In this document: positions 27,359 through 46,946 of the stretch, piece by piece | How the letters are laid out: each line of letters starts with the position of its first letter | How positions within the stretch are numbered: the stretch's first letter is position 1 | Source of the DNA: an uncultured Thermodesulfobacteriota bacterium | GTDB lineage: Bacteria > Desulfobacterota > B13-G15 | Assembly: GCA_964480925.1 (NCBI GenBank) | Contig: CAYZRR010000039.1 | Location: forward strand, 1-46,946 | DNA: 46,946 nt | Reading direction: 5' to 3' | Made by a program: the position numbers and the translations under genes | The notes under the pieces: generated by a model | Told to the model about the DNA's origin: nothing | Database searches by the model: none | The model's input: the letters and a program-made list of their open reading frames with translations, nothing else

Positions 27359-28131
27359 ATCATAAGGTTTAAGTTTTCCACTAAGTTTTGAAAGATTTTT
27401 GCTATTTCTTCCTTTACTCGAGGATCAAGATCATAAGGGGAGAGCCCCCTTTTATCCGCTTCTTGAATGGAAGGAAGATAAGGGAAATATCCCAAAATCG
27501 GTAACCCATTCATTCCTTCCTCGATAAACCTTTTGTCCTCTTCTGAAACGACCTTGTTTCCCACTACGAATATCCTTTTTACCCCCAATTGGTCTGCCAT
27601 TTCTTTAATCTGCCAAGCGGTGGAGATGCTTCTCTGTCCTGGTTCTACCACCACCAAAAAGGCATCGACCCCTTTTGTACTACCTCGACTTAAATGTTCG
27701 AGGCCCGCTTCCATATCTACGATGACGAACTCCTCTCGTTTGACCAGAATATGGTGAAGCAACGTTTTAAGGAGTGCATTTTCGGGACAAAAGCAACCGG
27801 TTCCAGCCTTTTGTAAGGTTCCAAGTATAAGGAGTTTCACCCCGTACTTGGTTTTACCGAAAGTATCAGGTATATCGTCCACTTTAGGGTTCAGATTGAA
27901 AAGACCCCCCGGCATCACTTCAGTTCGTTCCTTCACCAGTTCCTTCATCTGGGCTAAAGGTTTTACCCCCCTTATTTCTTCTTCCTTGAATCCGAGAGCC
28001 GAGGCCAAATTTGCATCAGGGTCCGCATCTATGGCCAAAACCTTATAGCCCTTTTCGGCTAGAAACCGAGCCAACCCTCCTGCTAAGGTGGTTTTTCCGA
28101 CTCCTCCTTTTCCTGCAACGGCTATTTTCAT
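27355..28131 (-). CDS. cooC: CooC-type (MinD/ParA superfamily) nickel-insertion ATPase
   Basis: Deviant Walker A AGKGGVGKTT, IDADPDANL, and the CooC-specific CxC motif in GTGCFCPEN. Confidence 0.8.
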   Translation of the reverse strand: MKIAVAGKGGVGKTTLAGGLARFLAEKGYKVLAIDADPDANLASALGFKEEEIRGVKPLAQMKELVKERTEVMPGGLFNLNPKVDDIPDTFGKTKYGVKLLILGTLQKAGTGCFCPENALLKTLLHHILVKREEFVIVDMEAGLEHLSRGSTKGVDAFLVVVEPGQRSISTAWQIKEMADQLGVKRIFVVGNKVVSEEDKRFIEEGMNGLPILGYFPYLPSIQEADKRGLSPYDLDPRVKEEIAKIFQNLVENLNLMI

Positions 28132-30806: not shown

Positions 30807-33080
30807 ATGATGATGAGAAGAAAGGGACTCGTGATTTTTATGGGATTTTTGTTCGGAATAATAGGGGTACCTTTATTTTATTTCACTTACTCTTTACCCC
30901 CCCTTAAAGACATTAACAGTTGGAAACCTCCCGTAATTACAAGGATAATCTCCGATGACGGTAAGGTAGTAGGTGAACTTTACCTTCAGAGAAGAATCCT
31001 CGTACCCAATGAGAATATTCCCCGCTTGCTCAAACAGGCTTTTGTAGCTGCTGAGGATGCGGATTTTTATCGTCATAAAGGGATTTCTCTTGTCGGCATT
31101 GCTAGAGCCATGTTAAAAAACGTGGAGGCTGGAAGGGTAGTTCAAGGTGGAAGTACTATCACCCAACAATTGGTAAGATCGTTGATCCTTGATCGCGAAA
31201 GGACGCTTTCCAGAAAGATAAAAGAGATGATTTTGGCTTGGCGTATCGAACAACAATTGACTAAGGACGAAATACTTTACTTATACCTCAATCAAATTTA
31301 TTTGGGACATGGCAATTATGGTATAGGAGCAGCGTCGGATTATTATTTCGGCAAATCCCCCGATCAGTTAAATTTAGCCGAAATTGCATTATTAGCCGGT
31401 TTGCCAAGGGCACCTGAGATTTATTCCCCTTATCGTAACTTTGAATTAGCAAAAAGACGTCAACTTTATGTTTTAAATAGAATGGTTGAAGAGGGATATA
31501 TCTCCGAAAATGAAGCCCGTATAGCTTATGCTACTCCTTTAAAATTGAGAGAACACGATCGCGAACTTCAAGAGGCTTCAGCTTATTATTTTGATTATGT
31601 AAGACAGTATCTTTTAAATCGTTATGGGGAAAAAGCAGTATATGAGAAAGGATTAACGGTTTATATCTCGATGGATTCACGACTTCAAAAGGCCGCTTTT
31701 ACATCTCTTCGAGAGGGAATTTTGAACATTAGCAAAAGGCAAGGTTATAAAGGACCAGAGAGAGTAATCAGCGAAAAGGAGATTAAGGATTTCTGTAAGG
31801 CTCTCGAAGATGAGAATAAGAGAATAGAAGTGGGTAAGGTTTACCTGGGGGTGGTTCTTAATGTGGAGAAGGATAAGGTGTGGGTTAGTATGGGAAAGGA
31901 AAAGGGGTTCCTTGAATCAAAGAATCTCGCTTGGCTTAAAGGAGGTTTTAAAAGAGGTCATGTTATAAGGGTGAAGGTAAAAGAGAAACTTGAGGATGCC
32001 TTTAAGCTTGAGCTTTATCAAGAACCAGAAGTAGAAGGTGCTATTTTTGCCATGGAATTGCCTACTGGTTACGTGAGAGCTATGGTGGGGGGTTATGATT
32101 TTCATCGGAGTCAGTTCAACCGGGCTCTTCAGGCTAAACGGCAACCGGGTTCGGCCTTTAAGCCAGTGGTATACGCTGCGGCTTTGACTAAAGGGTTTAA
32201 TCCGGTTAGTAAGGTTTTGGACGTTCCGGTGGTTTATCCGGAGGATAATTGGAAACCTATGAATTATCAAGGGCGTTTTTATGGTCCAGTGACGCTGAGA
32301 TTTGCTTTGGCTCAAAGTTTGAACTGCGCAACCGTTAATCTGGCAAGGGAATTGGGAATAGATTACGTGATACAATTCGCGAAACGCTTGGGGATTAATT
32401 CTCCCCTCAACAGAGACCTTTCAACAGTCTTAGGTTCTTCGCCGGTCACGCTTTTTGAGCTTGTTAGGGCCTTTGCCGTTTTTGCCACTGGTGGGCATCT
32501 TATACAGCCTGTTTTCGTTAAGAAAGTGGTGGATAGAGAGGGAGAGGTATTAGAAGAGAACGAACCTTTACCTTTAGAAGGAAAGCTTCGGGAACAAGGG
32601 ATCGAGCCTCAAGGAAGGTATAACCCGCAGGTTTTGAGCGAAGGAGTCGCCTACATCATGACTAACATGCTCCAATCAGTAGTCCAAGAAGGTACCGCTC
32701 AAATGGCCAAAAGTCTCGGCTGGCCATGCGCGGGTAAAACCGGAACCACAGACGATTACACTGATGCATGGTTTATAGGATATGTGTCCCATCTCATCGC
32801 GGGGGTATGGGTGGGGTTCGATAAGCCCAGATCCTTAGGACCGGGTGAAACGGGGGCACGGGCCGCTTTGCCCATATGGGTTAATTTTATGAAAGAGGCC
32901 CTTTCCGGACTTTCGCCCCAAGACTTCCCTTTACCCGAAGGCGAGGTGGTGTTTATGAGAATTAACCCCCAAACTGGATTACCCGCTTCTCCTGAAGAAG
33001 AAGGCATTTTTGAGCCTTTCCTCCAAGGAGCACAAGTTACGCCTTCTTCCCCAGACGCTTCTGGGCAGCTTCAAGAATAA
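30807..33080 (+). CDS. mrcA: class A penicillin-binding protein (PBP1A-type glycosyltransferase/transpeptidase)
   Basis: N-terminal TM helix. GT51 motifs EDADFYRH, GGSTITQQ and RKIKE. Transpeptidase motifs SAFKP (SxxK), SLN (SxN) and KTGTT. Confidence 0.9.
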   Translation: MMMRRKGLVIFMGFLFGIIGVPLFYFTYSLPPLKDINSWKPPVITRIISDDGKVVGELYLQRRILVPNENIPRLLKQAFVAAEDADFYRHKGISLVGIARAMLKNVEAGRVVQGGSTITQQLVRSLILDRERTLSRKIKEMILAWRIEQQLTKDEILYLYLNQIYLGHGNYGIGAASDYYFGKSPDQLNLAEIALLAGLPRAPEIYSPYRNFELAKRRQLYVLNRMVEEGYISENEARIAYATPLKLREHDRELQEASAYYFDYVRQYLLNRYGEKAVYEKGLTVYISMDSRLQKAAFTSLREGILNISKRQGYKGPERVISEKEIKDFCKALEDENKRIEVGKVYLGVVLNVEKDKVWVSMGKEKGFLESKNLAWLKGGFKRGHVIRVKVKEKLEDAFKLELYQEPEVEGAIFAMELPTGYVRAMVGGYDFHRSQFNRALQAKRQPGSAFKPVVYAAALTKGFNPVSKVLDVPVVYPEDNWKPMNYQGRFYGPVTLRFALAQSLNCATVNLARELGIDYVIQFAKRLGINSPLNRDLSTVLGSSPVTLFELVRAFAVFATGGHLIQPVFVKKVVDREGEVLEENEPLPLEGKLREQGIEPQGRYNPQVLSEGVAYIMTNMLQSVVQEGTAQMAKSLGWPCAGKTGTTDDYTDAWFIGYVSHLIAGVWVGFDKPRSLGPGETGARAALPIWVNFMKEALSGLSPQDFPLPEGEVVFMRINPQTGLPASPEEEGIFEPFLQGAQVTPSSPDASGQLQE

Positions 33081-34971
33081 GACCTAACATCTCCCTGTAA
33101 GTTATACCCGCTATTTCCGCCATTTTGGCTAAATGCCCATCCCAACACCACCCCGGATTGGGGTTTACTTCTAATAACTTCGGATTACCCTCGTTATCTA
33201 AACGCCAATCAAAGCGGCAATAGTCCCTGCATTCAAGTCTCGAAAACAATTTTAAACAACATTCAATGATGAACCCCTTAACTTCTTCAGGTAATTCTGC
33301 TTTAATCGATCGGATTTTTCCATAAGGCGAGTCTGGCAACCATTTAGCTTCATATCCACATATTCTTGGCAAATCTAAAGGTAATTGCGAATAATCCTCT
33401 TCAATAATAGGAAGTACTATGAAATCGTCAGGGGGATTTCCGATAATACCTACACTTAAATCTTTCCCTGTAAGGAATTCCTCAATGAGGATTGGCTTAT
33501 CATAACCAAAATTCTCGCGAGTTTCATGGATAACATCGAGTAACTCTTCGAGACTATTCACAACACTGCGCGCAGTAATCCCAAAACTTGAATCACCAAA
33601 AACAGGTTTGACAATTACAGGGAAATTTAACGAAAAATCGAAGGTGATATCCTCCGATTTTATTAATACACCTGAAGGTACGGGAATTCCCATTTCCCTT
33701 GCAACTCCCCGTATTAGTGATTTGTCGTAACAGTATATTAAACAACGAGGACCGGAACCAGTGTAAGGTATTCCTAATATTTCCAATAAAGCAGGGATAT
33801 GAGCTTCTTTCAATGGATCGTTGAAATAACCTTCGTCACACAGATTAAAGACAAAATTGATTTTAGGTTTGATCTTTATAAGATCAAATATTAATGTGTC
33901 ATGATTATCGAGATAACTAAATCTGTAATCCTCCAATTCGTTGAGAGCTTCTTTCAACTTATCGATGGTATAAATATCGTCGTCGTCAAAAATTCCCATT
34001 GGTTTCAAGGGATCGGGTTTTCTTTTGTCGCCTAGTAAAACCACCACATGTTTCAGCTCTTTTTTTGCTTTCTTTTTAACGAAGCTCCATTCCTTTTTCG
34101 CAACTGCGCTTACAAAAATGCGTCTCTCCATCATTCCCAAATCTTGGTTTCGTTGAGAATAACTTACAAATTCCTTATGAAACGTTATATCGCTGAAGCC
34201 TGCCGTTTGAAGGAGTTCCCTTAGGGCTTCGCGTGTGTAAAGCCTTTCAGCGTAAAATCTATCGGCAATGACTCCCTTTTCCACATGGGTTACTATCTCT
34301 CTACATATTAGCCTTTGCCCATCGCTTGAGAGGCTTCTTTCTCTACAGACAAAATGTTTTTTGTCTATCCATTCCCAACTCCTTGGTTGGAAATGCGTTT
34401 TTAGATACTCGCCATCGGCCACATCGATAAAAATTCGCCCCCATGGTTTTAGAACCTTGAAGACTTCCTTTAACACTTTGAGATCGTCTTTGAGTGACTC
34501 AAAATATCCAAAGCTGTTACCCAAAATCAGCACCACGTTGAAACTATCAGGACTGTAAGGAAGCTTTAAGGCATTACCTTCTCGAAATTTAACATTCAAT
34601 CCTTCCTTTTTTGCTTGATTTTTAGCCTTTTGAATTAAATAATGTGATCTATCAAGTCCCTCAACATATTTAAACCCCCTTCTTGCAAGTTCTAAACTGT
34701 GCCTTCCGTGTCCACAACAAAGATCCAATATTTTATCTTCGGTTGATAGTTTTAATATATCGAGCAATATATCCACTTCAATTTTTGTGATGAAGGGATC
34801 ATCCACTACGTCTCCATCCGTTTTCAAATAAAGGCTATCAAAGAGCTGAGACCACCAATTAGGACTAACCTTATCTTCAAGGTTTTCTATGGGTCCTAAA
34901 CATCTTGAAGAAAGGGAATTGGATTTTTGTCGATTGGAGTTAAAAACGTTTTTTTTCACGTTTTGATCCAT
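33037..34971 (-). CDS. fusion protein: class I SAM-dependent methyltransferase (N) + D-Ala-D-Ala-ligase-like ATP-grasp enzyme (C), function unknown
   Basis: Start moved to ATG 34971 (AAGGGGGA RBS). Methyltransferase part: ILDLCCGHGRHSLELARRGF, VEGLDRS, LILGNSFGYF and LKPWGRIFID. ATP-grasp part: NLCDEGY, IPYTGSGP, FPVIVKPVFGDSSFGI, ILIEEFLTGKDLSVGIIG and CRFDWRLDNEGNPKLLEVNPNPG. Confidence 0.75.
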   Translation of the reverse strand: MDQNVKKNVFNSNRQKSNSLSSRCLGPIENLEDKVSPNWWSQLFDSLYLKTDGDVVDDPFITKIEVDILLDILKLSTEDKILDLCCGHGRHSLELARRGFKYVEGLDRSHYLIQKAKNQAKKEGLNVKFREGNALKLPYSPDSFNVVLILGNSFGYFESLKDDLKVLKEVFKVLKPWGRIFIDVADGEYLKTHFQPRSWEWIDKKHFVCRERSLSSDGQRLICREIVTHVEKGVIADRFYAERLYTREALRELLQTAGFSDITFHKEFVSYSQRNQDLGMMERRIFVSAVAKKEWSFVKKKAKKELKHVVVLLGDKRKPDPLKPMGIFDDDDIYTIDKLKEALNELEDYRFSYLDNHDTLIFDLIKIKPKINFVFNLCDEGYFNDPLKEAHIPALLEILGIPYTGSGPRCLIYCYDKSLIRGVAREMGIPVPSGVLIKSEDITFDFSLNFPVIVKPVFGDSSFGITARSVVNSLEELLDVIHETRENFGYDKPILIEEFLTGKDLSVGIIGNPPDDFIVLPIIEEDYSQLPLDLPRICGYEAKWLPDSPYGKIRSIKAELPEEVKGFIIECCLKLFSRLECRDYCRFDWRLDNEGNPKLLEVNPNPGWCWDGHLAKMAEIAGITYREMLGLILEAAQKRLGKKA

Positions 34972-35051
34972 TCCCGTCCCCCTTATGCGATTTTTTCTGA
35001 TTGCAAATTTGCTCCAAATGACCTCATTTTTGCAAGAGGTTTTTAAAAGAG

Positions 35052-35081
35052 TTGACAAACCCAGTTTTTTTGGCATACAAA
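35052..35081 (+). promoter_or_regulatory. candidate sigma70-type promoter for pilMNOPQ
   Basis: Perfect TTGACA at 35052-35057, an 18-nt spacer, then TACAAA at 35076-35081, about 19 nt before the pilM ATG. The -10 element is weak and the leader would be very short. Confidence 0.2.
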
Positions 35082-35099
35082 TTTAAAGGGATTTTTGAA

Positions 35100-36152
35100 A
35101 TGAAAATATTGGAGGCTTTAAAGAGGGATAAAAAGGTTTCTTTAACATTAGGGATCGATATAGGCTCCAGCAACATTAAATTGGTCGACCTCAAACCCGA
35201 AAAAGACGTTTATCGGGTGGATAAAATCGCTTTACAACCTCTTCCTCCAGGCAGTGTCTCTCAAAGGGGTTATGTTAATTTGATAAGCGTAGCAGAAGCA
35301 CTACGTTTATTGATAAATGCGCATAAGTTAAAAAGGAGAAAGGTAGCAACTTCTGTAGCCGGACATGGAGTAATAGTAAAAAGATTACTTATACCCCCTA
35401 TGACTCAAAAGGAACTTGAGGAGAATTTAAGAATAGAAGCGAAAAAATATATTCCCGATGTAGAAGAAGTGGTATTGGATTTCCATATATTATCCCAAGA
35501 AGCGGAGGTTATGGAGATTTTACTTGTAGCAGCCAAGAAAGAGATAATTAATAATTATATAGCTATTTTAGAAGAGATAGAATTAGAACCAGTAATAATA
35601 GATGTAGATGCTTTTGCGCTACAGAATGCTTTTGAAATAAATTATCCTCACGAAGTCAAAAATGTTGTAGCTTTGTGTGATATTGGTGATAGTGTGACCA
35701 CTATAAATGTAGTTAAAAATGGGGAATGCCTTTTCACAAGAGATGTAGCCATTGGAGGAAGGTTTTATACTGAGGAGTTACAAAAAGAAATGGGTATAGG
35801 ATATGAAGAAGCCGAATCCCTGAAGCTTAGGCTTAAGGATGAGAAAAATCCTAAGGTTAACAAAGTCGTTAGTAGAGTGTCGCGCCTCATTTCGCTTGAA
35901 ATAGCCAAATCCTTAGATTTCTTCTCAGCTTCCTATCCGGATGAAAAGATTAATAAGCTTTATATAACTGGTGGGACTACAAAAGTGCCAGGCCTTAAGG
36001 AGATGATAGAGGAGCGTATAGGGATTAATGTGGACTTTTTTAACCCGTTTAACAATTTAATAGTTGATGCTAATAAGTTCCCCCTCGATTATTTGAAGGA
36101 AATTGCGCCTTTTACTGCAGTGGCCGTAGGTCTTGCCCTTAGGAAGGTGTGA
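35100..36152 (+). CDS. pilM: type IV pilus assembly ATPase-fold protein PilM
   Basis: Start moved to ATG 35100. Actin-like phosphate motif LGIDIGSSNIKLV, and ITGGTTKVPGL near the C-terminus. First gene of a pilMNOPQ array. Confidence 0.85.
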   Translation: MKILEALKRDKKVSLTLGIDIGSSNIKLVDLKPEKDVYRVDKIALQPLPPGSVSQRGYVNLISVAEALRLLINAHKLKRRKVATSVAGHGVIVKRLLIPPMTQKELEENLRIEAKKYIPDVEEVVLDFHILSQEAEVMEILLVAAKKEIINNYIAILEEIELEPVIIDVDAFALQNAFEINYPHEVKNVVALCDIGDSVTTINVVKNGECLFTRDVAIGGRFYTEELQKEMGIGYEEAESLKLRLKDEKNPKVNKVVSRVSRLISLEIAKSLDFFSASYPDEKINKLYITGGTTKVPGLKEMIEERIGINVDFFNPFNNLIVDANKFPLDYLKEIAPFTAVAVGLALRKV

Positions 36153-36155
36153 GAG

Positions 36156-36698
36156 ATGATAGAGATAAACCTTTTGCCTGTTAGTGAGATTCGCGAGAAA
36201 GAAAAGAAACGGTTTAAAGTTTCGGTCTCTCTGCTTCTTACAAGTTTGGTTATAGTAGTTTGTGTTTATCTAAAATGGACAGCCAATCAAAAGGAACGGA
36301 ACCTGGATGAGAATATAGGAAAGATAAATGAAGAGATAAAAAGATTGGATCTTTTAATTAAAGAAGTCGCCCAATTAAAAAACGAGAAAGAGGCTTTGGA
36401 AAAACGTTTGAAGGTAGCCGAGACTTTAGAGAAAGGGAGGCTCGAGGCCGCCGTTATAATGATGGATTTGAGCAAAAGGGTTCCAGAAAAGCTTTGGCTT
36501 GAGGGATTAGAAAAAAGGGGAGAATTAGTAAAGTGCAGTGGCATAGCTTTAGATGAGGAGACTATAGCCGATTTCATGACGGCTCTTAAGGGTTCTCCTT
36601 ACATAAAGAAAGTTGAGCTCGAATCTGTGAGGAAGCAATCGATAGGAGGGGTAAACCTTAAAAAGTTTGTCTTAACTTGTGAATTTAGGATGGATTAA
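36156..36698 (+). CDS. pilN: type IV pilus assembly protein PilN
   Basis: N-terminal INLLP motif, a single TM helix and a coiled coil. It sits immediately after pilM. Confidence 0.8.
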   Translation: MIEINLLPVSEIREKEKKRFKVSVSLLLTSLVIVVCVYLKWTANQKERNLDENIGKINEEIKRLDLLIKEVAQLKNEKEALEKRLKVAETLEKGRLEAAVIMMDLSKRVPEKLWLEGLEKRGELVKCSGIALDEETIADFMTALKGSPYIKKVELESVRKQSIGGVNLKKFVLTCEFRMD

Positions 36699-37295
36699 AT
36701 GGCGAGGTTTAAGTCAATAAAAAGAGAGATTCTCATTGTTATTTTATTGTGGATAGTTATTTTAGCTGTATTCTGGCAGGTCTTTTATAGGCCTCAAAAA
36801 TTAAGAATCATAGAAAAAGAACAACGTTTGGAGCAGTTGATAAATGAAAGAGATCGAAAGAAGATGATGGCTCAACAGTTGGATAAATATAGGAATGAAA
36901 TGGCCGAGATACGCAATAAATTGGCTGAGATTACTACAAAATTACCAGACGAAAAGGAAGTACCTGGTTTGCTCAAAATGGTATCTTTGGTGGGTAAAAA
37001 TTCAGGTTTAGATATTGAGTCCTTTCAACTTAAAGGGGAAGAAAGAAAGAGTTTTTATGCGGAAGTACCTTTTGAGATGAGTTTTGTGGGTAATTATCAT
37101 CAAATTGGAATGTTCTTTTATCAAGTGGGGCAGCTTCCAAGGATAATAACTATAAAGGAATTTTCCTTTTCTCCCATTAAAGAAGCAACAGGAGAGGAAA
37201 GATTTGTAAAACTTAAGGGAGCTTGTAAGGGGGCTACTTATTACTTCATAGAAGAAACATCTACGGCAGGTAAAAAGGATGAGAAGAAATCTTAA
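36699..37295 (+). CDS. pilO: type IV pilus assembly protein PilO
   Basis: A single TM helix, a coiled coil and a ferredoxin-like C-domain. Called by its position between pilN and pilP. Confidence 0.7.
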   Translation: MARFKSIKREILIVILLWIVILAVFWQVFYRPQKLRIIEKEQRLEQLINERDRKKMMAQQLDKYRNEMAEIRNKLAEITTKLPDEKEVPGLLKMVSLVGKNSGLDIESFQLKGEERKSFYAEVPFEMSFVGNYHQIGMFFYQVGQLPRIITIKEFSFSPIKEATGEERFVKLKGACKGATYYFIEETSTAGKKDEKKS

Positions 37296-37722
37296 AGAAG
37301 TTTTTGTTATTTTGCTTTTTGCCCTTTTTCCCGTATTTAATACCTTAGGCGAGCAGAAGGTGCTTATTTATAATCCAGAAACGTTAAGGGATCCCTTTAA
37401 GCCCTTTATAAAAAGGGAAGAGCCCATTAGACCAAAAGGAGTAATTGAGTCTCCCCTTTTAAAATATGAATTGAGCCAATTGAAACTTGTGGCGATAATT
37501 GTAGGCGGAAATGAAGATAGGGCTATGGTAGAAGATTCAGAAGGAAAGGGGTACATCATTCGCATAGGTGATTATATAGGTAATCGATTTGGAAGGGTTA
37601 AAGAGATAAGGAAAGATGGCGTGATTATAGAGGAGGCTTATAAAGACATTGTAGGACGAATCCGGACAAAAGAGATCATTTTATATCTTCATCCTCAAGA
37701 GAAAGGAGAAAAGAAGCCATGA
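37279..37722 (+). CDS. pilP: type IV pilus assembly protein PilP
   Basis: Signal sequence, an LRDPFKPF motif and a beta-sandwich C-terminus. Called partly by its position upstream of pilQ. No lipobox Cys is visible. Confidence 0.65.
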   Translation: MRRNLKEVFVILLFALFPVFNTLGEQKVLIYNPETLRDPFKPFIKREEPIRPKGVIESPLLKYELSQLKLVAIIVGGNEDRAMVEDSEGKGYIIRIGDYIGNRFGRVKEIRKDGVIIEEAYKDIVGRIRTKEIILYLHPQEKGEKKP

Positions 37723-39089
37723 AGCTTAAATTTAAAGTTGTGATATTAATTATAACTTTTGGATTATACGGGATATTTTTGAATCTTTCTTCAGTGGGGG
37801 CTTCTTCAACAGATTCTGTTTCTATTTTAGAGCGTTTGATGAAAGGCGAAAAAGAGTATAGCGGGACTCGAATAAGTTTGGATTTAAAGGATGCAGATTT
37901 ACCCAATGTATTAAGGTTATTTGCCGATGTAGCAAAAGTTAACATTTTAGTCACAGAGGAAGTTAAAGGGAAAGTGACACTACGTCTTTTAAATGTTCCT
38001 TGGGATCAGGCGCTTGATATCATTTTGGTTACTAATAATTTGGGTATGGAATGGGTAGGTAATGTTATTCGTATTTCTACTTTAGAAAGACTTCAGAAGG
38101 AGAAAGAGGCAAGGGCACAAACTAAAGTGGCGGAAGAAGCTATAAAGCCCGTAAGCACCGAATTGATACCCGTAAGTTACAGTAAGGCTTCTGATCTTGT
38201 TCCTAAAGTAAAAGATCTTTTGAGTCCTCGAGGTAGTGTAGTTGTTGATGAAAGGACTAATACTCTAATCGTTAAGGATGTGGAGGAAAGAATCCTTATG
38301 GTGAAGGAACTTATAAATCGCCTTGATTCTCAAACTCCTCAAGTATTGATCGATGCTAAAATCGTTGAGGCTACGACGGAATTTAAAAGGGAGTTGGGCA
38401 TAAGTTGGGGTGGTGCTTATAACACAAGTTATGAGGGGGATAAGGTATCGATTTCCGGAGCTTCTGAGGGTACGATGAAGCAATCGGGTACCTCGGACTA
38501 TCTTTTAAACCTTCCCGCAACTGTGGGCATTGGGTCGGGAGGAGCGGTGGATTTCTATATTGGGAATATAGGGCGCTTTTTTGAGGCAAAGCTTTCGGCT
38601 ATGGAACAAAAGGGGCTTGGAGAAGTCATTTCGAGTCCGAGGGTTGTGACCTTGGATCACACAGAAGCTTACATTGAACAAGGTATAAGAATCCCCTATT
38701 TGAAGCTTACCACAGAGGGTACGGTTTCAACGGAATTTATAGATGCCACCTTGAAACTCACCGTTACTCCTCATGTTACTGCCAATGGACACATTAAGCT
38801 TGACATAGAATGTTCGAAGGAAACCCCAGATTGGTCACGCATAGTTCAAGGACAACCCACCGTTAAAAAGAGCAGGGCTAAAACTCAATTGATGGTAAGG
38901 GATGGAGAGGTGATCGTCTTAGGCGGGATCTATGAATATTCTAAAACTGGTAGCACCCAAGGGGTTCCTGGTTTAAAGGATTTGCCGCTTGTCGGTTGGT
39001 TGTTTAAAAACAAAACCAAAGCGGAAGATAGAAAGGAATTATTGATCTTTATAACTCCCCGGATACTTACACCTATGGCTAAGAACTAA
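37719..39089 (+). CDS. pilQ: type IV pilus secretin PilQ (short form, no AMIN domain)
   Basis: Signal peptide, an N0/STN-like domain (ISLDLKDADLPNVLRLFADVAKVNILV), an N1 domain, and a secretin core ending VPGLKDLPLVGWLFKN...LLIFITPRIL. Confidence 0.85.
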   Translation: MKLKFKVVILIITFGLYGIFLNLSSVGASSTDSVSILERLMKGEKEYSGTRISLDLKDADLPNVLRLFADVAKVNILVTEEVKGKVTLRLLNVPWDQALDIILVTNNLGMEWVGNVIRISTLERLQKEKEARAQTKVAEEAIKPVSTELIPVSYSKASDLVPKVKDLLSPRGSVVVDERTNTLIVKDVEERILMVKELINRLDSQTPQVLIDAKIVEATTEFKRELGISWGGAYNTSYEGDKVSISGASEGTMKQSGTSDYLLNLPATVGIGSGGAVDFYIGNIGRFFEAKLSAMEQKGLGEVISSPRVVTLDHTEAYIEQGIRIPYLKLTTEGTVSTEFIDATLKLTVTPHVTANGHIKLDIECSKETPDWSRIVQGQPTVKKSRAKTQLMVRDGEVIVLGGIYEYSKTGSTQGVPGLKDLPLVGWLFKNKTKAEDRKELLIFITPRILTPMAKN

Positions 39090-40234: not shown

Positions 40235-41460
40235 AATCTAAATTATTTTACGGATGGATAATTGTAGCTGTAGCTTTTATTTCTATGGCTTTTTGGATGG
40301 GAATTAGGGCGAGTTTTTCAGTTTTCTACAGTCATTTGGTAGAGGTTTTTTCGTGGGGAAGAGGAGAAGCAGCAGTGGCTCAATCAATAAGTTTTGTGAT
40401 GTATATGGCTTTTGTTCCTATTATCGGTACACTCGTTGATCGTTTTGATCCTCGAAAGGTTGTAGTTTTAGGAGTTATTATTTGCGGGATTGGTTTGATC
40501 TTATGTGCTTTTATCAAAAATTTATGGACACTGTATATCTATTATGGGATAATTGCCGGTACCGGCATTTGTTTCATAAGTATAGTTACTTATTCCGCCA
40601 TCTTGTCCCGCTGGTTTGAAAGGAAAAGAGGGTTTGCTTCAGGGATTGCTACCTCGGGGATGGGAGTTGGTACATTTCTGTTAGTACTTTTTGCAGAGAG
40701 AATGATTCAAATTTTTGGGTGGCGTGAGGCTTTTATAATTTTAGGAATTATCACGTTGGGAGTACTTTTGCCCACAAATGGCCTTTTTTTACGTTCTAAA
40801 CCTCAAGAGATGGGCCTTGAGGTAGATGGATTATCCTGCTCTTTGTCGCTTGATGATATAAGAAAGAATGATTACCGTTTTTGGGATGCTTTAAGAACGC
40901 GTAAATTCTGGTTTCTTGTGTGTTTCGCCTCTTTTGCTCTTATGGGTATTCAGATCATACTTGTTCATAATGTCCGATTTTTAGTGGATAAAGGTATAGA
41001 TGTCAAAATTGCTTCAGTTGCTTTTGCGGTAGTGGGGATAATTTCTTCTCTCTTTAGGATCATTTGGGGATGGCTTTCGGATAGAATAGGAAGGGAGTGG
41101 TCATATAGTATTGGGGCTATATGTTTGGCACTTAGCGCTTTATGGCTTATTTTTGTATATCCTGAGAATGATCTCCCTTTATACCTTTTTGTTTTGTTTT
41201 TTGGGATAGGATGGGGAGCCACTGCTCCTTCTTTTATGGCTGTGGCAGCCGATTTGTTTAAAGGTGAACAATTCGGGGCTATTTACGGTTTTTTTGAGTC
41301 CGCTATGTATTTGTTATCGATAATTGGGGTGTGGATAGCGGGTTACATTTTCGACAAGTTTGGTACTTATAAGCCTTCTTTCTTATTGGTGATCGGTTCT
41401 TCTTTGATTTCCATAGTGTTTTTGTGGATTGTTGCACCAAGGAAAATCAAAAAGGCTTAA
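40231..41460 (+). CDS. MFS transporter (oxalate/formate antiporter-like family)
   Basis: TTG start with AGGAGG 9 nt upstream. About 12 predicted TM helices. LFYGWIIV N-terminus and a GTLVDRFDPRK loop 2-3 motif. Confidence 0.75.
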   Translation: MKSKLFYGWIIVAVAFISMAFWMGIRASFSVFYSHLVEVFSWGRGEAAVAQSISFVMYMAFVPIIGTLVDRFDPRKVVVLGVIICGIGLILCAFIKNLWTLYIYYGIIAGTGICFISIVTYSAILSRWFERKRGFASGIATSGMGVGTFLLVLFAERMIQIFGWREAFIILGIITLGVLLPTNGLFLRSKPQEMGLEVDGLSCSLSLDDIRKNDYRFWDALRTRKFWFLVCFASFALMGIQIILVHNVRFLVDKGIDVKIASVAFAVVGIISSLFRIIWGWLSDRIGREWSYSIGAICLALSALWLIFVYPENDLPLYLFVLFFGIGWGATAPSFMAVAADLFKGEQFGAIYGFFESAMYLLSIIGVWIAGYIFDKFGTYKPSFLLVIGSSLISIVFLWIVAPRKIKKA

Positions 41461-43526
41461 TTATTCGAAATTATCTTTTTTATAGTTTCTAATAATTTTA
41501 AACGGTCGAAAGGTTTAACTAATAAGAAATCAAACGGAATATTTTCACTTAAATTTGGATATCCAGTAATACAAATAATCTTGACTGTAGGGGAGAGTTT
41601 CTTAAAAGATGTTATTAAAGTTTTCCCATCAATATTAGGCATTACGAGATCTACTATTACGGTTTTTAAACTTCTTCTTAGAGTTTTAAATAATTCTAAA
41701 CCTTCTTCTGGATTTGTAGTTCCGATGACATTGATTCCTTCCTTTTCGAGTACCTCTTTTATAAAGGAAATTATCCTTTCTTCGTCATCTATAACTAAAA
41801 TTGTATGCGTTCCCATGGGAACTGAAGTTGTATTTTTTTCTTGTTGTTGTAAAAGGGGCAAATAGATATGAAAAGTGGTTCCTTGGGAGACATAACTTTC
41901 CACCTCGATGTTTCCTTTATGTTCTTTCACTATTCCATAAACCACTGCCAGTCCCAGTCCTGTGCCTTTGCCTTTTTTCTTTGTGGTGAAAAACGGATCA
42001 AATATATAAGGTAGATGTTCAGGAGGTATTCCTACGCCTGTGTCAGAAAGGGATAACTTTGCCTTTTTTTCTCCTCCCTTTTCTACAATAGTAGTAGATA
42101 TCCTTAGAGCCCCACCTTGAGGCATAGCATCAAATGCATTAAGTATAATGTTTACAATAGCCTGTTCGAGCATTATTGGATCAGCTTTTAGCATTAAAGG
42201 TTTTTCATATAAATTCACACTGATTTCAATGTTTGGTGGTTTAAGATTACTTATTAATTTCATACTTTCGCTTACCACCATATTTAAATCTATTGTTACC
42301 ATATCTAACGGTTTTTTCCGGGCAAAATCTAATAATTTAGATACAATTTGGGAAGCCGAGCGTGCTGCTTGTTCTATATCGTTAAGCCTTTGCAAAAACG
42401 ATTCTGTTAATGATTCCTGCATCCTTAATAACTCTACGTTTCCTAAGATTGCAGAAAGTATGTTGTTGAAATCATGGGCGATTCCTCCTGCCATTATACC
42501 TATCGATTCCATTTTCTGTGAATATATAAGTTCAGCTTGCATTTTCTTTCTTTCGGATATATCTCGGCAAAATAGCTGTATATATTTTTGATCATTTATC
42601 TCAATTAAAGATGAGCTTATTTCTAATGGTATTCTATTACCATCTTTAGTGTAATGTTCTGTTTCGTATAATAAAGTATGTTTCTCCATAAGCTCTTTTA
42701 TTTTTCTCTCCCACGGCATTGATTTGTTCGGTACTTCGAGCATTTGAATATTTAAACCTTCTAATACCTCAAATCCATGAAGCTTTGAGGCATAAGGATT
42801 GGCTTTAATAATAGTTCCTTTGAGATTTGTAATTATTATGCCTTCGTTTGCATTTTCAAAGAGCGTATTTAATAAAGTTTCACTCATATGAAGTTCTTTG
42901 CTTCTTTCTTCAACTAATTGTTCCAATTTATAAGAATATTCGGAAAGTAGCTCTTTCTCTTTCGCAAGTTCTTGAGTTAATGTTATTTCCTTTTGTAAAC
43001 GCTTATTATCAAGATATCTCCAAATTAACAATGTTAAATTGATAATGATTAAGAAAAAGAAATTGACTATAAAAATAATTTTGTTAGTGAAGAAAAACAA
43101 AGCAGGGATAATATAAATAGCACATATGGCAATAGCATTAAAAGAGGCCCAAATTATCGGTAAAGGGATCATTCCCAAGGAAAAAATGGAAAGCAAGATC
43201 AAACCGGCATAGTAAGGAGAATGGGGGCCTTCATGATTTAATATCATTAATTCTATAACAACAGCACATAACGATGTTGTAACCAAAATAAAAATATTTA
43301 GTGGCAGTCTTTTGTTACGTAATGTACTTAATACAAAATAGCATAATATTAAAAAAGCAGAAATCAACGTTCTTAGCAAAAGAAAAAGATAAAAACGAGC
43401 GGGTACAGTAAGATAATCTAATAAAGAAAGGAGTAAAAACAGAAAGGCCCCGAAAAGAAGGAGAAACTCTACACGTCTGTAAGTAATCTTATAAAACTCT
43501 TCCTGAACGTATTTTTCTTTTGTCAA
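41457..43526 (-). CDS. hybrid sensor histidine kinase: polytopic membrane domain + coiled coil + PAS + HisKA/HATPase + C-terminal receiver
   Basis: TTG start overlapping the upstream stop (TTGA). About 6 TM helices in the first 170 aa. H-box GGIAHDFNNIL, N-box ILNAFDAM, G1 DTGVGI and G2 GKGTGLGLAV. Receiver motifs ILVIDDEE...VIVDLVMPNIDG. Confidence 0.85.
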   Translation of the reverse strand: MTKEKYVQEEFYKITYRRVEFLLLFGAFLFLLLSLLDYLTVPARFYLFLLLRTLISAFLILCYFVLSTLRNKRLPLNIFILVTTSLCAVVIELMILNHEGPHSPYYAGLILLSIFSLGMIPLPIIWASFNAIAICAIYIIPALFFFTNKIIFIVNFFFLIIINLTLLIWRYLDNKRLQKEITLTQELAKEKELLSEYSYKLEQLVEERSKELHMSETLLNTLFENANEGIIITNLKGTIIKANPYASKLHGFEVLEGLNIQMLEVPNKSMPWERKIKELMEKHTLLYETEHYTKDGNRIPLEISSSLIEINDQKYIQLFCRDISERKKMQAELIYSQKMESIGIMAGGIAHDFNNILSAILGNVELLRMQESLTESFLQRLNDIEQAARSASQIVSKLLDFARKKPLDMVTIDLNMVVSESMKLISNLKPPNIEISVNLYEKPLMLKADPIMLEQAIVNIILNAFDAMPQGGALRISTTIVEKGGEKKAKLSLSDTGVGIPPEHLPYIFDPFFTTKKKGKGTGLGLAVVYGIVKEHKGNIEVESYVSQGTTFHIYLPLLQQQEKNTTSVPMGTHTILVIDDEERIISFIKEVLEKEGINVIGTTNPEEGLELFKTLRRSLKTVIVDLVMPNIDGKTLITSFKKLSPTVKIICITGYPNLSENIPFDFLLVKPFDRLKLLETIKKIISNN

Positions 43527-44929
43527 TTCTTCTCAATCATGTAAAAAGTAATAATTCCCGATGGCTCTCTTATCAAAGTTATTTGTGATTTAGAAATTCC
43601 AGCTTTATCTAATAACATAAAAATGTCATAAGGGGTCCTTTGTAAAAATGCATTCCAATTAACAATCCAATGGTACACACTGGGGTCATAAGCGTTCGCA
43701 TCTTTAAAAGCAATAATTAATTTGCCTTGTTTATTGAGTATTTCATACAATGATTCGAATAAACTTATAACAATTTCGTCTGAAAGATAATCGAACAGAC
43801 CGATGCTGTAAATCAAATCGTATTTTCCGAATTCTTTTAAAATTCTTTCTGTTTTTACCATTCTGATAGCGTTATATTTTCTAAATGAAACTTGGTTATC
43901 GATACCGAGTAAAGAAGCTCTTCTTGCTGCAAAATCTAAAGCTTCATCATCAAGGTCAACACACGTAATATGTGCTTTTGATTCTTTTATTTCTTCGGTA
44001 AGTTCTATAAACTCTCGACAAGATCCACAACCAATATTTAAAACCTTCAAGTCATGTCGCGCGGTGAATTCTTTTTTTAGCAATGTTATCATTGTATTTA
44101 ACCTACCTCTTACTGCTTCTGCTAACTTAGCACGCAAGAAAATTTTGTCAAGGATCTCTCCTATTCCTGACGAAAGGGGCATGTTTCTATAAATTAGTTC
44201 CAAAAGCTTATAATCACCTGGATAACCCTTGGGCCATTTTCTTGCGTAATTTATGAAATAGCTTTTGGAAAAAACCGAATCCGTTTTTTCAAAGATGTCC
44301 CTTTTAAATTTTGAAAGGAAATCGTTATCACATATTCCCAACTCTTCTATCTCACGGCACAAATTGGCGATAGTATAGATATCGTTCTCTAAATCTAACA
44401 TTATCATTTCATTTGGCACCGTTTGATTTTTATGATTATCCACAAAATCGCATTTTTTGACAAATTGATCTATAGACGAATATATACTCTCTAATTTTGT
44501 TTTTAATAACTTTTTTTCAAATTCTTCGAGGAAAAGTGGAGAATAAAAATCAAGGGGAAAACCGCAAGAAGAGCAAATATTATCTTTGCTAGTTTTCAGC
44601 ATTCCACAGAATGGACAGTTACTTTGAGGTAGATGCTCTTTTATAGTATCAAAAATAGCCTGTTTTACTTTTAAATCTGGAGATTTAAAGCGTACAGCCA
44701 CTCCTTCATCTTCACTCCTTAAAACAATTCCTTTGGTTTCGATATTTTCGTCTTGAAGCTTAAAAATTAATTTTGTCCAGAATCCCTTTGATAAGTAATT
44801 TTTTAAGGAAAGAAAAGCTCCATGTAAACTCAAGTTTTTGGTGTATGTATCACAATGAGACATTTCCTCATTAGTGTAAATCACCCTTACTGGTACCTTA
44901 AGATTACACCTAAGGTCATAACGTCTCAT
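43523..44929 (-). CDS. PilZ domain + zinc ribbon + class I SAM-dependent methyltransferase fusion protein
   Basis: Start moved to ATG 44929 (GGAGG 6 nt upstream). PilZ signature RRYDLR (RxxxR, aa 2-7) and NLSLHG (NxSxxG, aa 32-37). CPFC-x10-CSSC zinc ribbon. Methyltransferase motifs VLNIGCGSCREF, CVDLDDEAL and DLIYSIGLFDYL. Confidence 0.75.
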   Translation of the reverse strand: MRRYDLRCNLKVPVRVIYTNEEMSHCDTYTKNLSLHGAFLSLKNYLSKGFWTKLIFKLQDENIETKGIVLRSEDEGVAVRFKSPDLKVKQAIFDTIKEHLPQSNCPFCGMLKTSKDNICSSCGFPLDFYSPLFLEEFEKKLLKTKLESIYSSIDQFVKKCDFVDNHKNQTVPNEMIMLDLENDIYTIANLCREIEELGICDNDFLSKFKRDIFEKTDSVFSKSYFINYARKWPKGYPGDYKLLELIYRNMPLSSGIGEILDKIFLRAKLAEAVRGRLNTMITLLKKEFTARHDLKVLNIGCGSCREFIELTEEIKESKAHITCVDLDDEALDFAARRASLLGIDNQVSFRKYNAIRMVKTERILKEFGKYDLIYSIGLFDYLSDEIVISLFESLYEILNKQGKLIIAFKDANAYDPSVYHWIVNWNAFLQRTPYDIFMLLDKAGISKSQITLIREPSGIITFYMIEKN

Positions 44930-45000
44930 ATTAATCCTCCTTAAATAAAACACTTCTACAAATTTTTAAGCAATTATTGTGCCTTACGTTTAATGGGTAT

Positions 45001-46092
45001 TTAAGTGGTCAAGAAAGCATGCGTGTGATTAAACTCTTCCCACACCTGGGAAAATTTTTCCTCTATTGAGAGAAAATTTTCCACAATGATGGGGTCAAGG
45101 GCATGTCCTTCTTCCATTTTTATGAGTTCCACACTTTCTTCATGGCCGAAAGGGGGTTTATAGGGTCGATTCGCCCTTAGAGCATCATACATATCCACCA
45201 AGGCCATTATTCGGGCAGATAGGGGTATTTCTTCCCCGATTAGCCCATCGGGATACCCTTTTCCATCCCATCTCTCATGATGCCATCTGGCGATCTCGAT
45301 GCCCATATTTATAAAATTGTTCTTAGGATATTTCTTCCGAACTTCTTCCAGTGCTCGGGCGCCGATAAGCGTATGCTGTTTCATTATCTCTTTTTCAGCT
45401 GGAGTAAGGGCCCCGGGTTTTAGGAGAATATCATCAGGAATCCCTATTTTCCCTATGTCATGTAAAGCAGAAGCCCAATATATAGTGTTTATAAATTCAT
45501 CATCAATTAGCGATTTATAGTAACTGTTATTTTTTAAAGAATTGGCTAATAATTTGCAAAAAGTTTGCACCCTTTCAATATGTTGTCCAGTTTCTACATT
45601 ACGATATTCTACAAGTTTAGATATAGCGACAATTGTTGAAAGTTGTGATTCGAAAATTTCCTTCGCTTTTTCCTCTACAAGCTTTAATAATTCTAAATTA
45701 TACTTTTTAAGTTGTAAGTTAGCTTCCCTAAGTTCAAGATGTGTTTTAACTCTTGCTAAAACTTCTCTTATGTGATATGGTTTTGTTATATAATCAGAAG
45801 CTCCTGCAGAAAATGCCTTAATTTTGTTATTTACATCTTCAATGGCCGTTATAAACAATATGGGTGTTTCCGATAAATTTGGGTTTTGCTTTAAAATTCT
45901 ACACAATTCAATACCGTTAAGTTCTGGCATTAAAATGTCCAAGATTATTATATCTGGAGGATCGTTTAAAGCTGACTTTAAAGCTTTTAATGGAGAATCG
46001 AAAGGACGTACGTCATATCCTGCTGTCTGAAGCATTTCCGTTAGTAATTTAAGATTAGCCACATCATCATCAACTATCATTATGGTTGACAT
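45001..46092 (-). CDS. response regulator with HD-GYP c-di-GMP phosphodiesterase output domain (RpfG-like)
   Basis: Receiver motifs IMIVDDD...IILDILMPELNG...ITKP. HD-GYP motifs ALHDIGKIGIPD and HHERWDGKGYPDGL. Confidence 0.9.
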   Translation of the reverse strand: MSTIMIVDDDVANLKLLTEMLQTAGYDVRPFDSPLKALKSALNDPPDIIILDILMPELNGIELCRILKQNPNLSETPILFITAIEDVNNKIKAFSAGASDYITKPYHIREVLARVKTHLELREANLQLKKYNLELLKLVEEKAKEIFESQLSTIVAISKLVEYRNVETGQHIERVQTFCKLLANSLKNNSYYKSLIDDEFINTIYWASALHDIGKIGIPDDILLKPGALTPAEKEIMKQHTLIGARALEEVRKKYPKNNFINMGIEIARWHHERWDGKGYPDGLIGEEIPLSARIMALVDMYDALRANRPYKPPFGHEESVELIKMEEGHALDPIIVENFLSIEEKFSQVWEEFNHTHAFLTT

Positions 46093-46946
46093 GGTTTTTG
46101 CTCAATTTTTTATAATGTCTCAATTTTTCAAGATACATATTTCTATCAGCTTCGTTTAAAGCCTTCTCTAAGGGTTCTCCTTTTTTGGGATCCCATAAGG
46201 AGGAGCCTATGGAAAGGCTTATAGGGACATGTGGATTTTCGGAATCGTATTCGTCTACTTTTTTGAGGATCCTTTCCTTCACAGTTTGAAGCCCTCCATT
46301 ATCGTTGGGTTCAAGGAGAACTACGAGGAATTCATCACCCCCATATCTTACCACGATGTCGCTTTCCCTTATCGAATTTTTTAATATTTGCGCCGTTTTT
46401 TTCAGAACCTCATCTCCTATTAAATGCCCTTTTTCATCGTTTATTACCTTCATATTATCTACATCTACCATCAAGAACCCAATAGGACGACCGTATCTTT
46501 GGGCCCTTTTGACTTCCTGTTCCAGATATAAAAAGAGAAAATGTCGGTTATAAAGACCAGTAAGTGCATCGGTGAGAGCCATTTCTTCGAGTTCTTTTTG
46601 TAAACGGATTTGTTTTATCATATTGCTTGTAAAGTTCAAGATTAATTCTACCAATTTATAATCCCTATCTTCGGGTTGTGAAAGAAATTTAATTTTTAAA
46701 ATCCCCACGTTCTTGATTGAATAAAGGAAAGTTGACCTATTTTCTAATTTTATTTGAAATTGGTCTACTTTTTCGGAGGCCAAAAATTCACAATTGACGT
46801 CGAAGATATTTTTTAATCCTTCTGAAAGAGTTTCAATTATTTCATTTTCTTCTTTTAATTCATATAATTGATAAATTAAATGAGTCGATTGTAATATACG
46901 CGTACGATAAAGTTCCGAAGAAAGTTCCAATAATTTCTTTTCCGTA
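46070..46946 (-). CDS. GGDEF diguanylate cyclase with a small N-terminal sensory (GAF-like?) region; the reading frame stays open to the right edge, so the N-terminus may be missing
   Basis: DALTGLYNRHF, active-site RYGGDEFLVV, and the I-site RESD exactly 5 aa before GGDEF. The listed M at 46930 is a TTG with no RBS, and the frame has no stop up to 46946. Confidence 0.85.
   Translation of the reverse strand, partial: TEKKLLELSSELYRTRILQSTHLIYQLYELKEENEIIETLSEGLKNIFDVNCEFLASEKVDQFQIKLENRSTFLYSIKNVGILKIKFLSQPEDRDYKLVELILNFTSNMIKQIRLQKELEEMALTDALTGLYNRHFLFLYLEQEVKRAQRYGRPIGFLMVDVDNMKVINDEKGHLIGDEVLKKTAQILKNSIRESDIVVRYGGDEFLVVLLEPNDNGGLQTVKERILKKVDEYDSENPHVPISLSIGSSLWDPKKGEPLEKALNEADRNMYLEKLRHYKKLSKNHVNHNDS

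Follow-up and report, generated by a model that had tools for sequence, protein, structure and literature searches.

A stretch of 46,946 nucleotides from an uncultured Thermodesulfobacteriota bacterium (assembly GCA_964480925.1, contig CAYZRR010000039.1; the whole stretch is hereafter called the window) carries near its end a gene whose 468-residue product joins an N-terminal PilZ domain and a putative zinc ribbon to a class I S-adenosylmethionine (SAM)-dependent methyltransferase. The gene lies in a row with genes for a diguanylate cyclase, a cyclic di-GMP (c-di-GMP) phosphodiesterase and a membrane-bound hybrid histidine kinase. The features of the protein (residues abbreviated aa) and of its three neighbors are listed here, with the evidence for each in brackets.

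43523-44929, minus strand, stop codon included: gene encoding the 468-aa protein with PilZ domain, putative zinc ribbon, helical lid and class I SAM-methyltransferase (open reading frame, translation, Pfam, AlphaFold2 model)
44936-44940, minus strand: ribosome-binding site GGAGG, with a 6-nt spacer to ATG 44929 (read from the sequence)
44636-44929, minus strand: PilZ domain, aa 1-98, with six or seven beta-strands and a C-terminal helix at aa 86-97 (Pfam PF07238, Foldseek)
44909-44923, minus strand: R3-Y-D-L-R7 at the extreme N-terminus, the RxxxR half of the predicted c-di-GMP site (conservation)
44819-44836, minus strand: N32-L-S-L-H-G37, aa 32-37, the [D/N]xSxxG half of the predicted c-di-GMP site (conservation)
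44564-44617, minus strand: putative Cys4 zinc ribbon C105-P-F-C108-x10-C119-S-S-C122, aa 105-122 (Cys conservation, model)
44060-44533, minus strand: all-helical lid or linker, aa 133-290 (DSSP of the model; region common to PilZ-less relatives)
44210-44236, minus strand: W232-P-x-G-Y-P-G-D239 loop within the helical lid (invariant columns in 67 sequences)
43526-44059, minus strand: catalytic domain of Rossmann fold that binds SAM, aa 291-468, containing motif I, D325 and D327 of the acidic loop, N353 and G377 (Pfam, invariant residues, Foldseek)
41457-43526, minus strand: hybrid sensor histidine kinase with about six transmembrane helices joined by very short loops, then PAS, HisKA, HATPase and REC (Pfam, hydropathy)
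45001-46092, minus strand: REC-HD-GYP response regulator, an RpfG-like c-di-GMP phosphodiesterase with intact HD, HHE and GYP motifs (Pfam Response_reg, HD_5 and HD; translation)
46070-46946, minus strand, truncated at the end of the window: GGDEF diguanylate cyclase, C-terminal part, with the GGDEF motif and an RxxD I-site (Pfam GGDEF, 143.6 bits)

The open reading frame that encloses the methyltransferase gene spans 43523-44953 (minus strand) and opens at a GTG upstream of ATG 44929. We prefer the ATG because the full-length homologues start at the same methionine, all of them beginning at an equivalent M-(R/A)-R in the homologue alignment. The first-pass annotation, made from the letters of the sequence, had already moved the start to this ATG on account of the GGAGG 6 nt upstream, and the sequence and the homologue starts bear it out. 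The motifs it had picked out are likewise all present: MRRYDLR at the N-terminus, NLSLHG at aa 32-37, CPFC-x10-CSSC, WPKGYPGDY at aa 232-240 and the methyltransferase motifs VLNIGCGSCREF (aa 296-307), CVDLDDEAL (aa 323-331) and DLIYSIGLFDYL (aa 371-382).

The PilZ assignment is supported by profile, fold and conservation. Pfam PilZ PF07238 matches aa 2-93 with 36.7 bits (E=5.7e-9), well over the curated cut-off of 22.5. A separate AlphaFold2 model of aa 1-135 (predicted local distance difference test score, pLDDT, of 88) drew PilZ domains exclusively as its top 45 Foldseek matches in the PDB, with target-normalised template modelling (TM) scores of up to 0.83. Among them were BcsA/CeSA (4i86, also 4p00 and 5ej1), Alg44 (4rt0), MotI (5vx6) and PA0012 (8u0i), as well as YcgR, MrkH and MapZ complexed with CheR1 (5xly, 5y4r), and most of the matched structures had been solved with c-di-GMP bound. 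In 22 full-length homologues of 35–85% identity, which served as our conservation set, R3, R7, L35 and G37 are each kept in at least 90%, and an Asn or Asp at position 32 is conserved to the same degree as R3, R7 and G37. The two half-sites at their canonical spacing, as the first-pass annotation had described them, thus hold for R3xxxR7 and N32-G37. The serine within the second half-site is less general: position 34 is a glycine in most relatives, including the 96%-identical protein P0001, so that the motif of this clade reads [D/N]-L-G-L-x-G. In one sub-clade (P0019-P0021, L033) the PilZ motifs are degenerate. Behind the PilZ domain, all of the same homologues have C105 and C108 and at least 90% have C119 and C122; the zinc-ribbon profiles of Pfam stay below threshold (Zn_ribbon_3, 16 bits against a cut-off of 27), and the call of a zinc ribbon therefore follows from the conserved cysteines and the model.

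The C-terminal half of the protein is a class I methyltransferase by both profile and fold, again as first annotated. Methyltransf_31, _25 and _12 match aa 293-410 with 38–41 bits (E~1e-10; cut-offs 27–30), and Methyltransf_20 gives a marginal match to aa 242-405 (24.2 bits against 21) that extends back into the helical region. G302, D325, D327, N353, G377 and the W232-P-x-G-Y-P-G-D239 loop are invariant in the 22 homologues and also in a wider alignment of 67 sequences that includes PilZ-less relatives, and the SAM site is accordingly predicted to be competent. Built from this 67-sequence alignment, the full-length AlphaFold2 model (pLDDT 94.2, predicted TM-score 0.89) shows by DSSP a beta-barrel and helix at aa 7-97, short beta-bridges near the Cys pairs, an all-helical region at aa 133-290 and the Rossmann domain, in agreement with the zinc ribbon and helical linker that the first-pass annotation had called. 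When the whole model was searched with Foldseek, the structural neighbors were small-molecule O- and C-methyltransferases with helical lids from natural-product pathways (3ocj, SgvM, SibL, MfnG and others) and no protein methyltransferases. E-values went down to 4e-12, and none of the neighbors is close, query-normalised TM-scores being 0.38 or less. Sequence and profile searches likewise found no close relative among solved structures, the best being 3ocj (E=1.5e-4), a Bordetella protein of unknown function. We rejected identities as cyclopropane fatty-acid synthase, BioC, CpaM, UbiE/UbiG or PrmC, for which NCBIfam matches all lie far below the cut-offs. A CheR-like identity was rejected as well, there being only sub-threshold matches to motif I and no CheR structure among the top 50 whole-model fold matches.

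The first-pass annotation had proposed a survey of this domain architecture. Among 1.84 billion representatives, 591 clusters (50% identity) match the full-length family profile at E<=1e-30, and members occur in five phyla (Nitrospirota, Thermodesulfobacteriota, Omnitrophota, Planctomycetota and Aquificota). All share a methyltransferase core of about 340 aa, made up of the helical lid and the Rossmann domain, which is found in several forms.

About 350 aa: core without an N-terminal domain, common in Planctomycetota, cultured isolates included
About 468 aa: PilZ plus zinc ribbon, the form of the window protein
About 426-449 aa: a shorter canonical PilZ domain, 'RRYERRP...DISEAG'
About 450 aa: a third PilZ type in Omnitrophota proteins, labelled 'PilZ domain-containing protein' at NCBI
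About 580 aa: fusion with a REC domain

At least three clades thus carry mutually divergent N-terminal PilZ domains on one methyltransferase core. The zinc-ribbon type and the short type each match Pfam PilZ and fall in separate clades of the methyltransferase-core tree, and a common origin of the two found no support (hhalign probability 0.7%). Their separate clades and lack of detectable mutual similarity suggest that, across long evolutionary distances, the PilZ input has either persisted or been gained more than once. Fully canonical RRxxxR...DxSxxG PilZ domains, with RRxxxR at about residues 13-27, are borne by other clades of the family. Homology searches seeded with GC-rich members reached the Omnitrophota and Planctomycetota, and the clusters of the GC-rich representatives hold metagenome proteins only; tblastn against plasmids returned only distant Rhizobium and Enterobacter methyltransferases.

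Along the minus strand, from upstream to downstream, the window encodes the GGDEF cyclase, the REC-HD-GYP protein, the PilZ-methyltransferase and the hybrid kinase, whose gene begins at a TTG with a 4-nt overlap with the end of the methyltransferase gene. The same four-gene order is found in three related loci (L001, L008 and L010), and the contig of one of them, a Thermodesulfobacteriota metagenome-assembled genome (L008), is 93.8% identical to the window in DNA sequence over 11.4 kb, with the same gene order. The cyclase orthologue is 698 aa long in L008 and has the architecture 5TM-5TMR_LYT, PAS and GGDEF in L001. For the REC-HD-GYP protein the best NCBIfam match is 'response regulator c-di-GMP phosphodiesterase, NosR family', below cut-off. 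No Hpt domain was found in the window kinase. MASE8 was considered for its membrane domain and dropped: relatives match it weakly, and the window protein gives no match. Beyond the kinase the window encodes a major facilitator superfamily (MFS) transporter, an AmiC-type AMIN-domain amidase and a complete pilM-pilN-pilO-pilP-secretin (pilQ) type IV pilus cluster; the pilMNOPQ genes occupy 35052-39089 on the plus strand, followed by the amidase and MFS genes, and thus adjoin the c-di-GMP operon, with the same neighbors in L008 and L010.

We next consider the neighborhoods of relatives. When one genome per GTDB species was scanned by pattern, 250 relatives were obtained, and loci were analysed for the best 80 of the 250, which come from Thermodesulfobacteriota, Nitrospirota/Thermodesulfovibrionales, Aquificota and Planctomycetota and nearly all from metagenome-assembled genomes. 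Open reading frames were called in these 80 loci and compared with the window proteins, and the methyltransferase itself was recovered in 74. In 26 of the 74, a kinase homologous to that of the window, membrane domain included, lies directly downstream of the methyltransferase. Another arrangement, seen in 37 loci, places downstream a tightly packed set encoding a short-chain dehydrogenase/reductase (SDR)-type ketoreductase (KR), a ketosynthase (KS), a FabA/ApeI-like dehydratase (DH), a second ketosynthase, an acyl carrier protein (ACP) and an FAD amine-oxidase-like protein, and wherever the contig is long enough the set is followed by the same homologous kinase. Together these arrangements account for 63 of the 74 loci, and each is seen both in PilZ-bearing and in PilZ-less loci. 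Of the loci that have at least one gene downstream, just 8 fit neither arrangement; four of them come from planctomycetes and have a very large cytoplasmic kinase encoded upstream. REC-HD-GYP genes lie within four genes of the methyltransferase in 7/16 PilZ-bearing as against 0/10 PilZ-less kinase-adjacent loci (Fisher p=0.023).

Single loci add further variations. L030 (7995-16393) holds a tight operon of PilZ-methyltransferase, SDR ketoreductase, two ketosynthases, ACP, FAD amine-oxidase-like protein and a hybrid kinase with six transmembrane helices; similar operons occur in L022, L027, L034, L071 and others, many of them from Nitrospirota, some with an added FabA/ApeI-like dehydratase, and the enzyme set resembles an aryl-polyene-type synthase. 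In an Omnitrophota locus (L088, chromosome CP070807.1), histidine kinases with seven transmembrane helices flank a receiver domain fused to a ketosynthase (217-1824) and an ACP gene next to it, and a PilZ-methyltransferase follows nearby; phosphorylation of this fusion may directly control acyl-chain synthesis. A cultured planctomycete has its methyltransferase next to REC-HD-GYP and Hpt genes. Two-domain REC-PilZ proteins adjoin the methyltransferase-kinase pair in L004 (9679-11682) and L007 (4250-5594), two of them lying upstream of a PilZ-less methyltransferase in L007, so c-di-GMP input may come in trans where the enzyme has no PilZ domain of its own.

From the domain identities, conserved motifs, predicted folds and conserved gene order described above, we infer a c-di-GMP-binding enzyme, its substrate class, a signaling role for its product, control of either sign and phosphotransfer from the kinase to the HD-GYP protein. 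Our tentatively favored proposal, which we rate as slightly less likely than not, is a PhcB-like acyl-signal methyltransferase that is gated by c-di-GMP and works in a feedback loop with its sensor kinase. The protein would be cytoplasmic, with a PilZ domain as c-di-GMP receptor and a Cys4 zinc ribbon placed ahead of a lidded small-molecule SAM-dependent methyltransferase. It would most likely methylate a hydrophobic, fatty-acyl-derived carboxylate to a methyl ester, as PhcB does, and the ester would be a membrane-partitioning signal sensed by the downstream kinase inside its six-helix membrane domain. The presence of KR/KS/DH/ACP genes between methyltransferase and kinase in half of the loci points to an acyl substrate; the substrate thus looks to be acyl-derived and the product tied to a dedicated membrane sensor kinase.

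Two enzymes of the operon would set the level of c-di-GMP: the TM-PAS-GGDEF cyclase (TM, transmembrane) would make it and the REC-HD-GYP phosphodiesterase would degrade it. By analogy with BcsA, binding of c-di-GMP to the N-terminal RxxxR / [D/N]xSxxG site would switch the methyltransferase on or off, and the N-terminal arginines may hold the lid inactive until they are captured by c-di-GMP. Should the REC-HD-GYP protein receive its phosphate from the hybrid kinase, as RpfG does from RpfC, the signal would act on c-di-GMP and through it on its own production: inhibition by c-di-GMP would yield autoinduction, activation would yield homeostasis. The idea of c-di-GMP gating is strengthened by the cyclase, phosphodiesterase and hybrid kinase of the operon and by the occurrence of at least three divergent PilZ types on one methyltransferase family.

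Several observations weigh against this proposal. The replacement of S34 by glycine in most relatives may weaken or alter c-di-GMP binding, and an RxxxR motif at residues 3-7, with nothing preceding it, is unusually placed. Planctomycete relatives do not have a polytopic membrane kinase as partner. The HD-GYP enrichment comes from a small sample, with a p-value uncorrected for phylogeny. No acyl-chain synthesis genes adjoin the methyltransferase or occur among the other window genes checked, which are mostly housekeeping genes, so the substrate would need to come from housekeeping metabolism. Finally, promoter and terminator scans of the window gave sites no more frequent than in shuffled sequence, and the operon structure hence rests on gene spacing and conservation.

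Some of these observations would suit a PilZ domain that no longer binds c-di-GMP and serves as a structural or protein-interaction module, the enzyme being regulated otherwise or not at all. The glycine at position 34, the degenerate motifs of the P0019-P0021, L033 sub-clade and the position of RxxxR at the very N-terminus all agree with such a loss. We nevertheless consider it quite unlikely, as R3, R7, N/D32 and G37 persist in at least 90% of homologues at 35–85% identity, the window protein has the canonical serine, other clades are fully canonical, and a cyclase and a phosphodiesterase are encoded in the same operon. A different objection concerns the target. The enzyme could modify a signaling protein, for instance the kinase encoded next to it or the REC-HD-GYP phosphodiesterase, by an adaptation reaction like that of CheR, which would make the fusion a cis version of MapZ-CheR1. 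MapZ-CheR1 is indeed a precedent for c-di-GMP control of a protein methyltransferase, the gene adjoins two-component proteins in every phylum examined, and several relatives have weak Pfam CheR matches (16–22 bits against a cut-off of 27). Those matches, however, span the generic SAM-binding motif only, and the CheR N-terminal domain and beta-subdomain are absent; the top 50 fold matches are small-molecule O-/C-methyltransferases with no CheR among them, and half of the loci insert KR/KS/DH/ACP genes between methyltransferase and kinase. A protein target accordingly seems to us rather improbable.

Closer to the favored proposal is an enzyme that methylates a lipid or metabolite for membrane or pigment biosynthesis, by BioC-like priming or in the manner of a cyclopropane fatty-acid synthase, with a kinase that merely regulates the pathway. 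Relatives' sets of KS, KR, ApeI-like DH, ACP and FAD-oxidase do resemble aryl-polyene-type synthases, and NCBIfam yields weak matches, each far short of its cut-off, to BioC, cyclopropane fatty-acid synthases and CpaM. On the other hand, the window locus is free of such biosynthetic genes and still retains the methyltransferase-kinase pair, and the two arrangements share a homologous kinase membrane domain, as would be expected of a synthase and its sensor more than of a structural lipid pathway. We regard this explanation as unlikely.

On the boldest reading, the locus would form a quorum-type circuit complete in itself and so far undescribed, composed of a PhcB-like synthase whose activity c-di-GMP sets directly through the fused PilZ domain, a six-helix kinase as sensor and an RpfG-like HD-GYP protein, which would link an extracellular signal and c-di-GMP in both directions at the post-translational level. 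The same logic of PilZ-methyltransferase, membrane kinase and optional acyl synthase would then run through Nitrospirota, Thermodesulfobacteriota and Omnitrophota. It might extend to the PhcB of Ralstonia as well. This reading as a whole seems to us doubtful at present. The outputs so far known to be under PilZ control are for the most part polysaccharide synthases, flagellar brakes, pili, transcription factors and adaptor proteins; cis gating of a methyltransferase by c-di-GMP would, if real, extend them to small-molecule methylation. Were the product a diffusible acyl methyl ester, c-di-GMP and cell-cell signaling would be coupled directly at the post-translational level, and a first handle would be gained on signaling chemistry in the largely uncultured anaerobic Thermodesulfobacteriota, Nitrospirota and Omnitrophota. 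Since cultured planctomycetes carry the PilZ-less enzyme, experiments are feasible.

Three other genes of the window deserve mention. A 679-aa protein encoded at 33037-35076 (minus strand) has the unusual combination of a class I methyltransferase (aa 107-220) and, at its C-terminus, a D-Ala-D-Ala-ligase-type ATP-grasp domain (aa 463-668). The 871-aa protein encoded at 28128-30743 (minus strand) combines DHH-DHHA1 and two CBS domains with a poly(A) polymerase/CCA-adding head domain. In the release factor 2 gene, a programmed +1 frameshift site (GGGAGG, then TAT CTT TGA C) lies at 25445-25460 (minus strand), upstream of the open reading frame 24420-25277, in which the PCRF match starts at profile position 60; a programmed +1 frameshift in the gene for this factor is classical and well known.

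Among known systems, the Phc system of Ralstonia solanacearum offers the first comparison. PhcB is the SAM-dependent methyltransferase for the quorum signals methyl 3-hydroxypalmitate and methyl 3-hydroxymyristate and is encoded in the phcBSRQ operon. Many relatives of the window protein, including one with PilZ and zinc ribbon (P0011), bear the automated JGI (Joint Genome Institute) name of the PhcB orthology group, 'extracellular factor (EF) 3-hydroxypalmitic acid methyl ester biosynthesis protein'. The link to PhcB is indirect, in that it comes from these names and from gene order and that PhcB was compared by description only. PhcB has 467 aa against 468 aa here, and the methyltransferase domain is C-terminal in both. 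In both systems the methyltransferase gene lies immediately upstream of a gene for a sensor kinase with a polytopic membrane domain, here with a 4-nt overlap and a conserved pairing. Unlike the Phc system, the window locus has no equivalents of the response regulators PhcR and PhcQ or of the LysR regulator PhcA; the MFS, AmiC and pilMNOPQ genes lie downstream of its kinase and the REC-HD-GYP and GGDEF genes upstream of its methyltransferase. The window kinase, moreover, is a PAS hybrid kinase with a REC domain, and the window operon carries c-di-GMP enzymes. PhcB was reported to make methyl 3-hydroxy fatty acid esters (PMC8578825), and phcS follows directly after phcB as inferred from chromosome positions (PMC6989110). 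In PhcB (RSc2735), the adaptive mutation R22C replaces a conserved arginine that lies outside the methyltransferase domain, and it was reported to lower quorum responsiveness (PMC6989110). For this Ralstonia pathogen the question arises whether the N-terminus of PhcB is a PilZ domain with R22 within its RxxxR, which we offer as a lead and not as a result; our literature searches found no paper that describes a PilZ domain or c-di-GMP binding for PhcB.

Cellulose synthase BcsA is gated by its cis-fused PilZ domain. As here, a single polypeptide holds a catalytic domain together with a PilZ domain that has RxxxR and [D/N]xSxxG, and BcsA is among the best fold matches of the window PilZ domain. 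In BcsA, however, PilZ is C-terminal and the output is a membrane glycosyltransferase, whereas here PilZ is N-terminal, a zinc ribbon follows and the output is a soluble methyltransferase. Control of methyltransferases through PilZ is known in trans: c-di-GMP-bound MapZ of Pseudomonas aeruginosa controls CheR1, and a PilZ adaptor of Xanthomonas citri binds the N5-glutamine methyltransferase HemK (PMC11250160). In both pairs c-di-GMP acts via PilZ on a SAM-dependent methyltransferase, as is predicted here, but the PilZ protein is a separate single-domain adaptor and the partner a protein methyltransferase, in contrast to the cis fusion with an enzyme of small-molecule type. The statement of the first-pass annotation that no PilZ-controlled methyltransferase had been characterised is too strong in view of these pairs in trans; for cis fusions, our literature searches found no paper on a characterised cis PilZ-SAM-methyltransferase fusion, and surveys of PilZ architectures mention methyltransferases only in the context of MapZ.

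The closest parallel for the regulatory genes is the Rpf system of Xanthomonas, which works with a diffusible signal factor (DSF). RpfF, RpfC and RpfG link a fatty-acid-type signal to c-di-GMP turnover, and RpfC phosphorylates RpfG. There, as here, a lipid-type signal synthase, a membrane hybrid kinase and a REC-HD-GYP protein are encoded together, the synthase role being a prediction for the window protein. The two systems differ in that the synthase here is a methyltransferase and RpfF a crotonase, and in that the hybrid kinase here is without Hpt. In the window system the PilZ domain would moreover place the synthase itself under the control of c-di-GMP, a feedback that to our knowledge is not known for Rpf. 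Set beside these systems, the architecture is plausibly a widespread, already annotated and as yet uncharacterised variant of a PilZ-gated enzyme and of a PhcB-like signal synthase.

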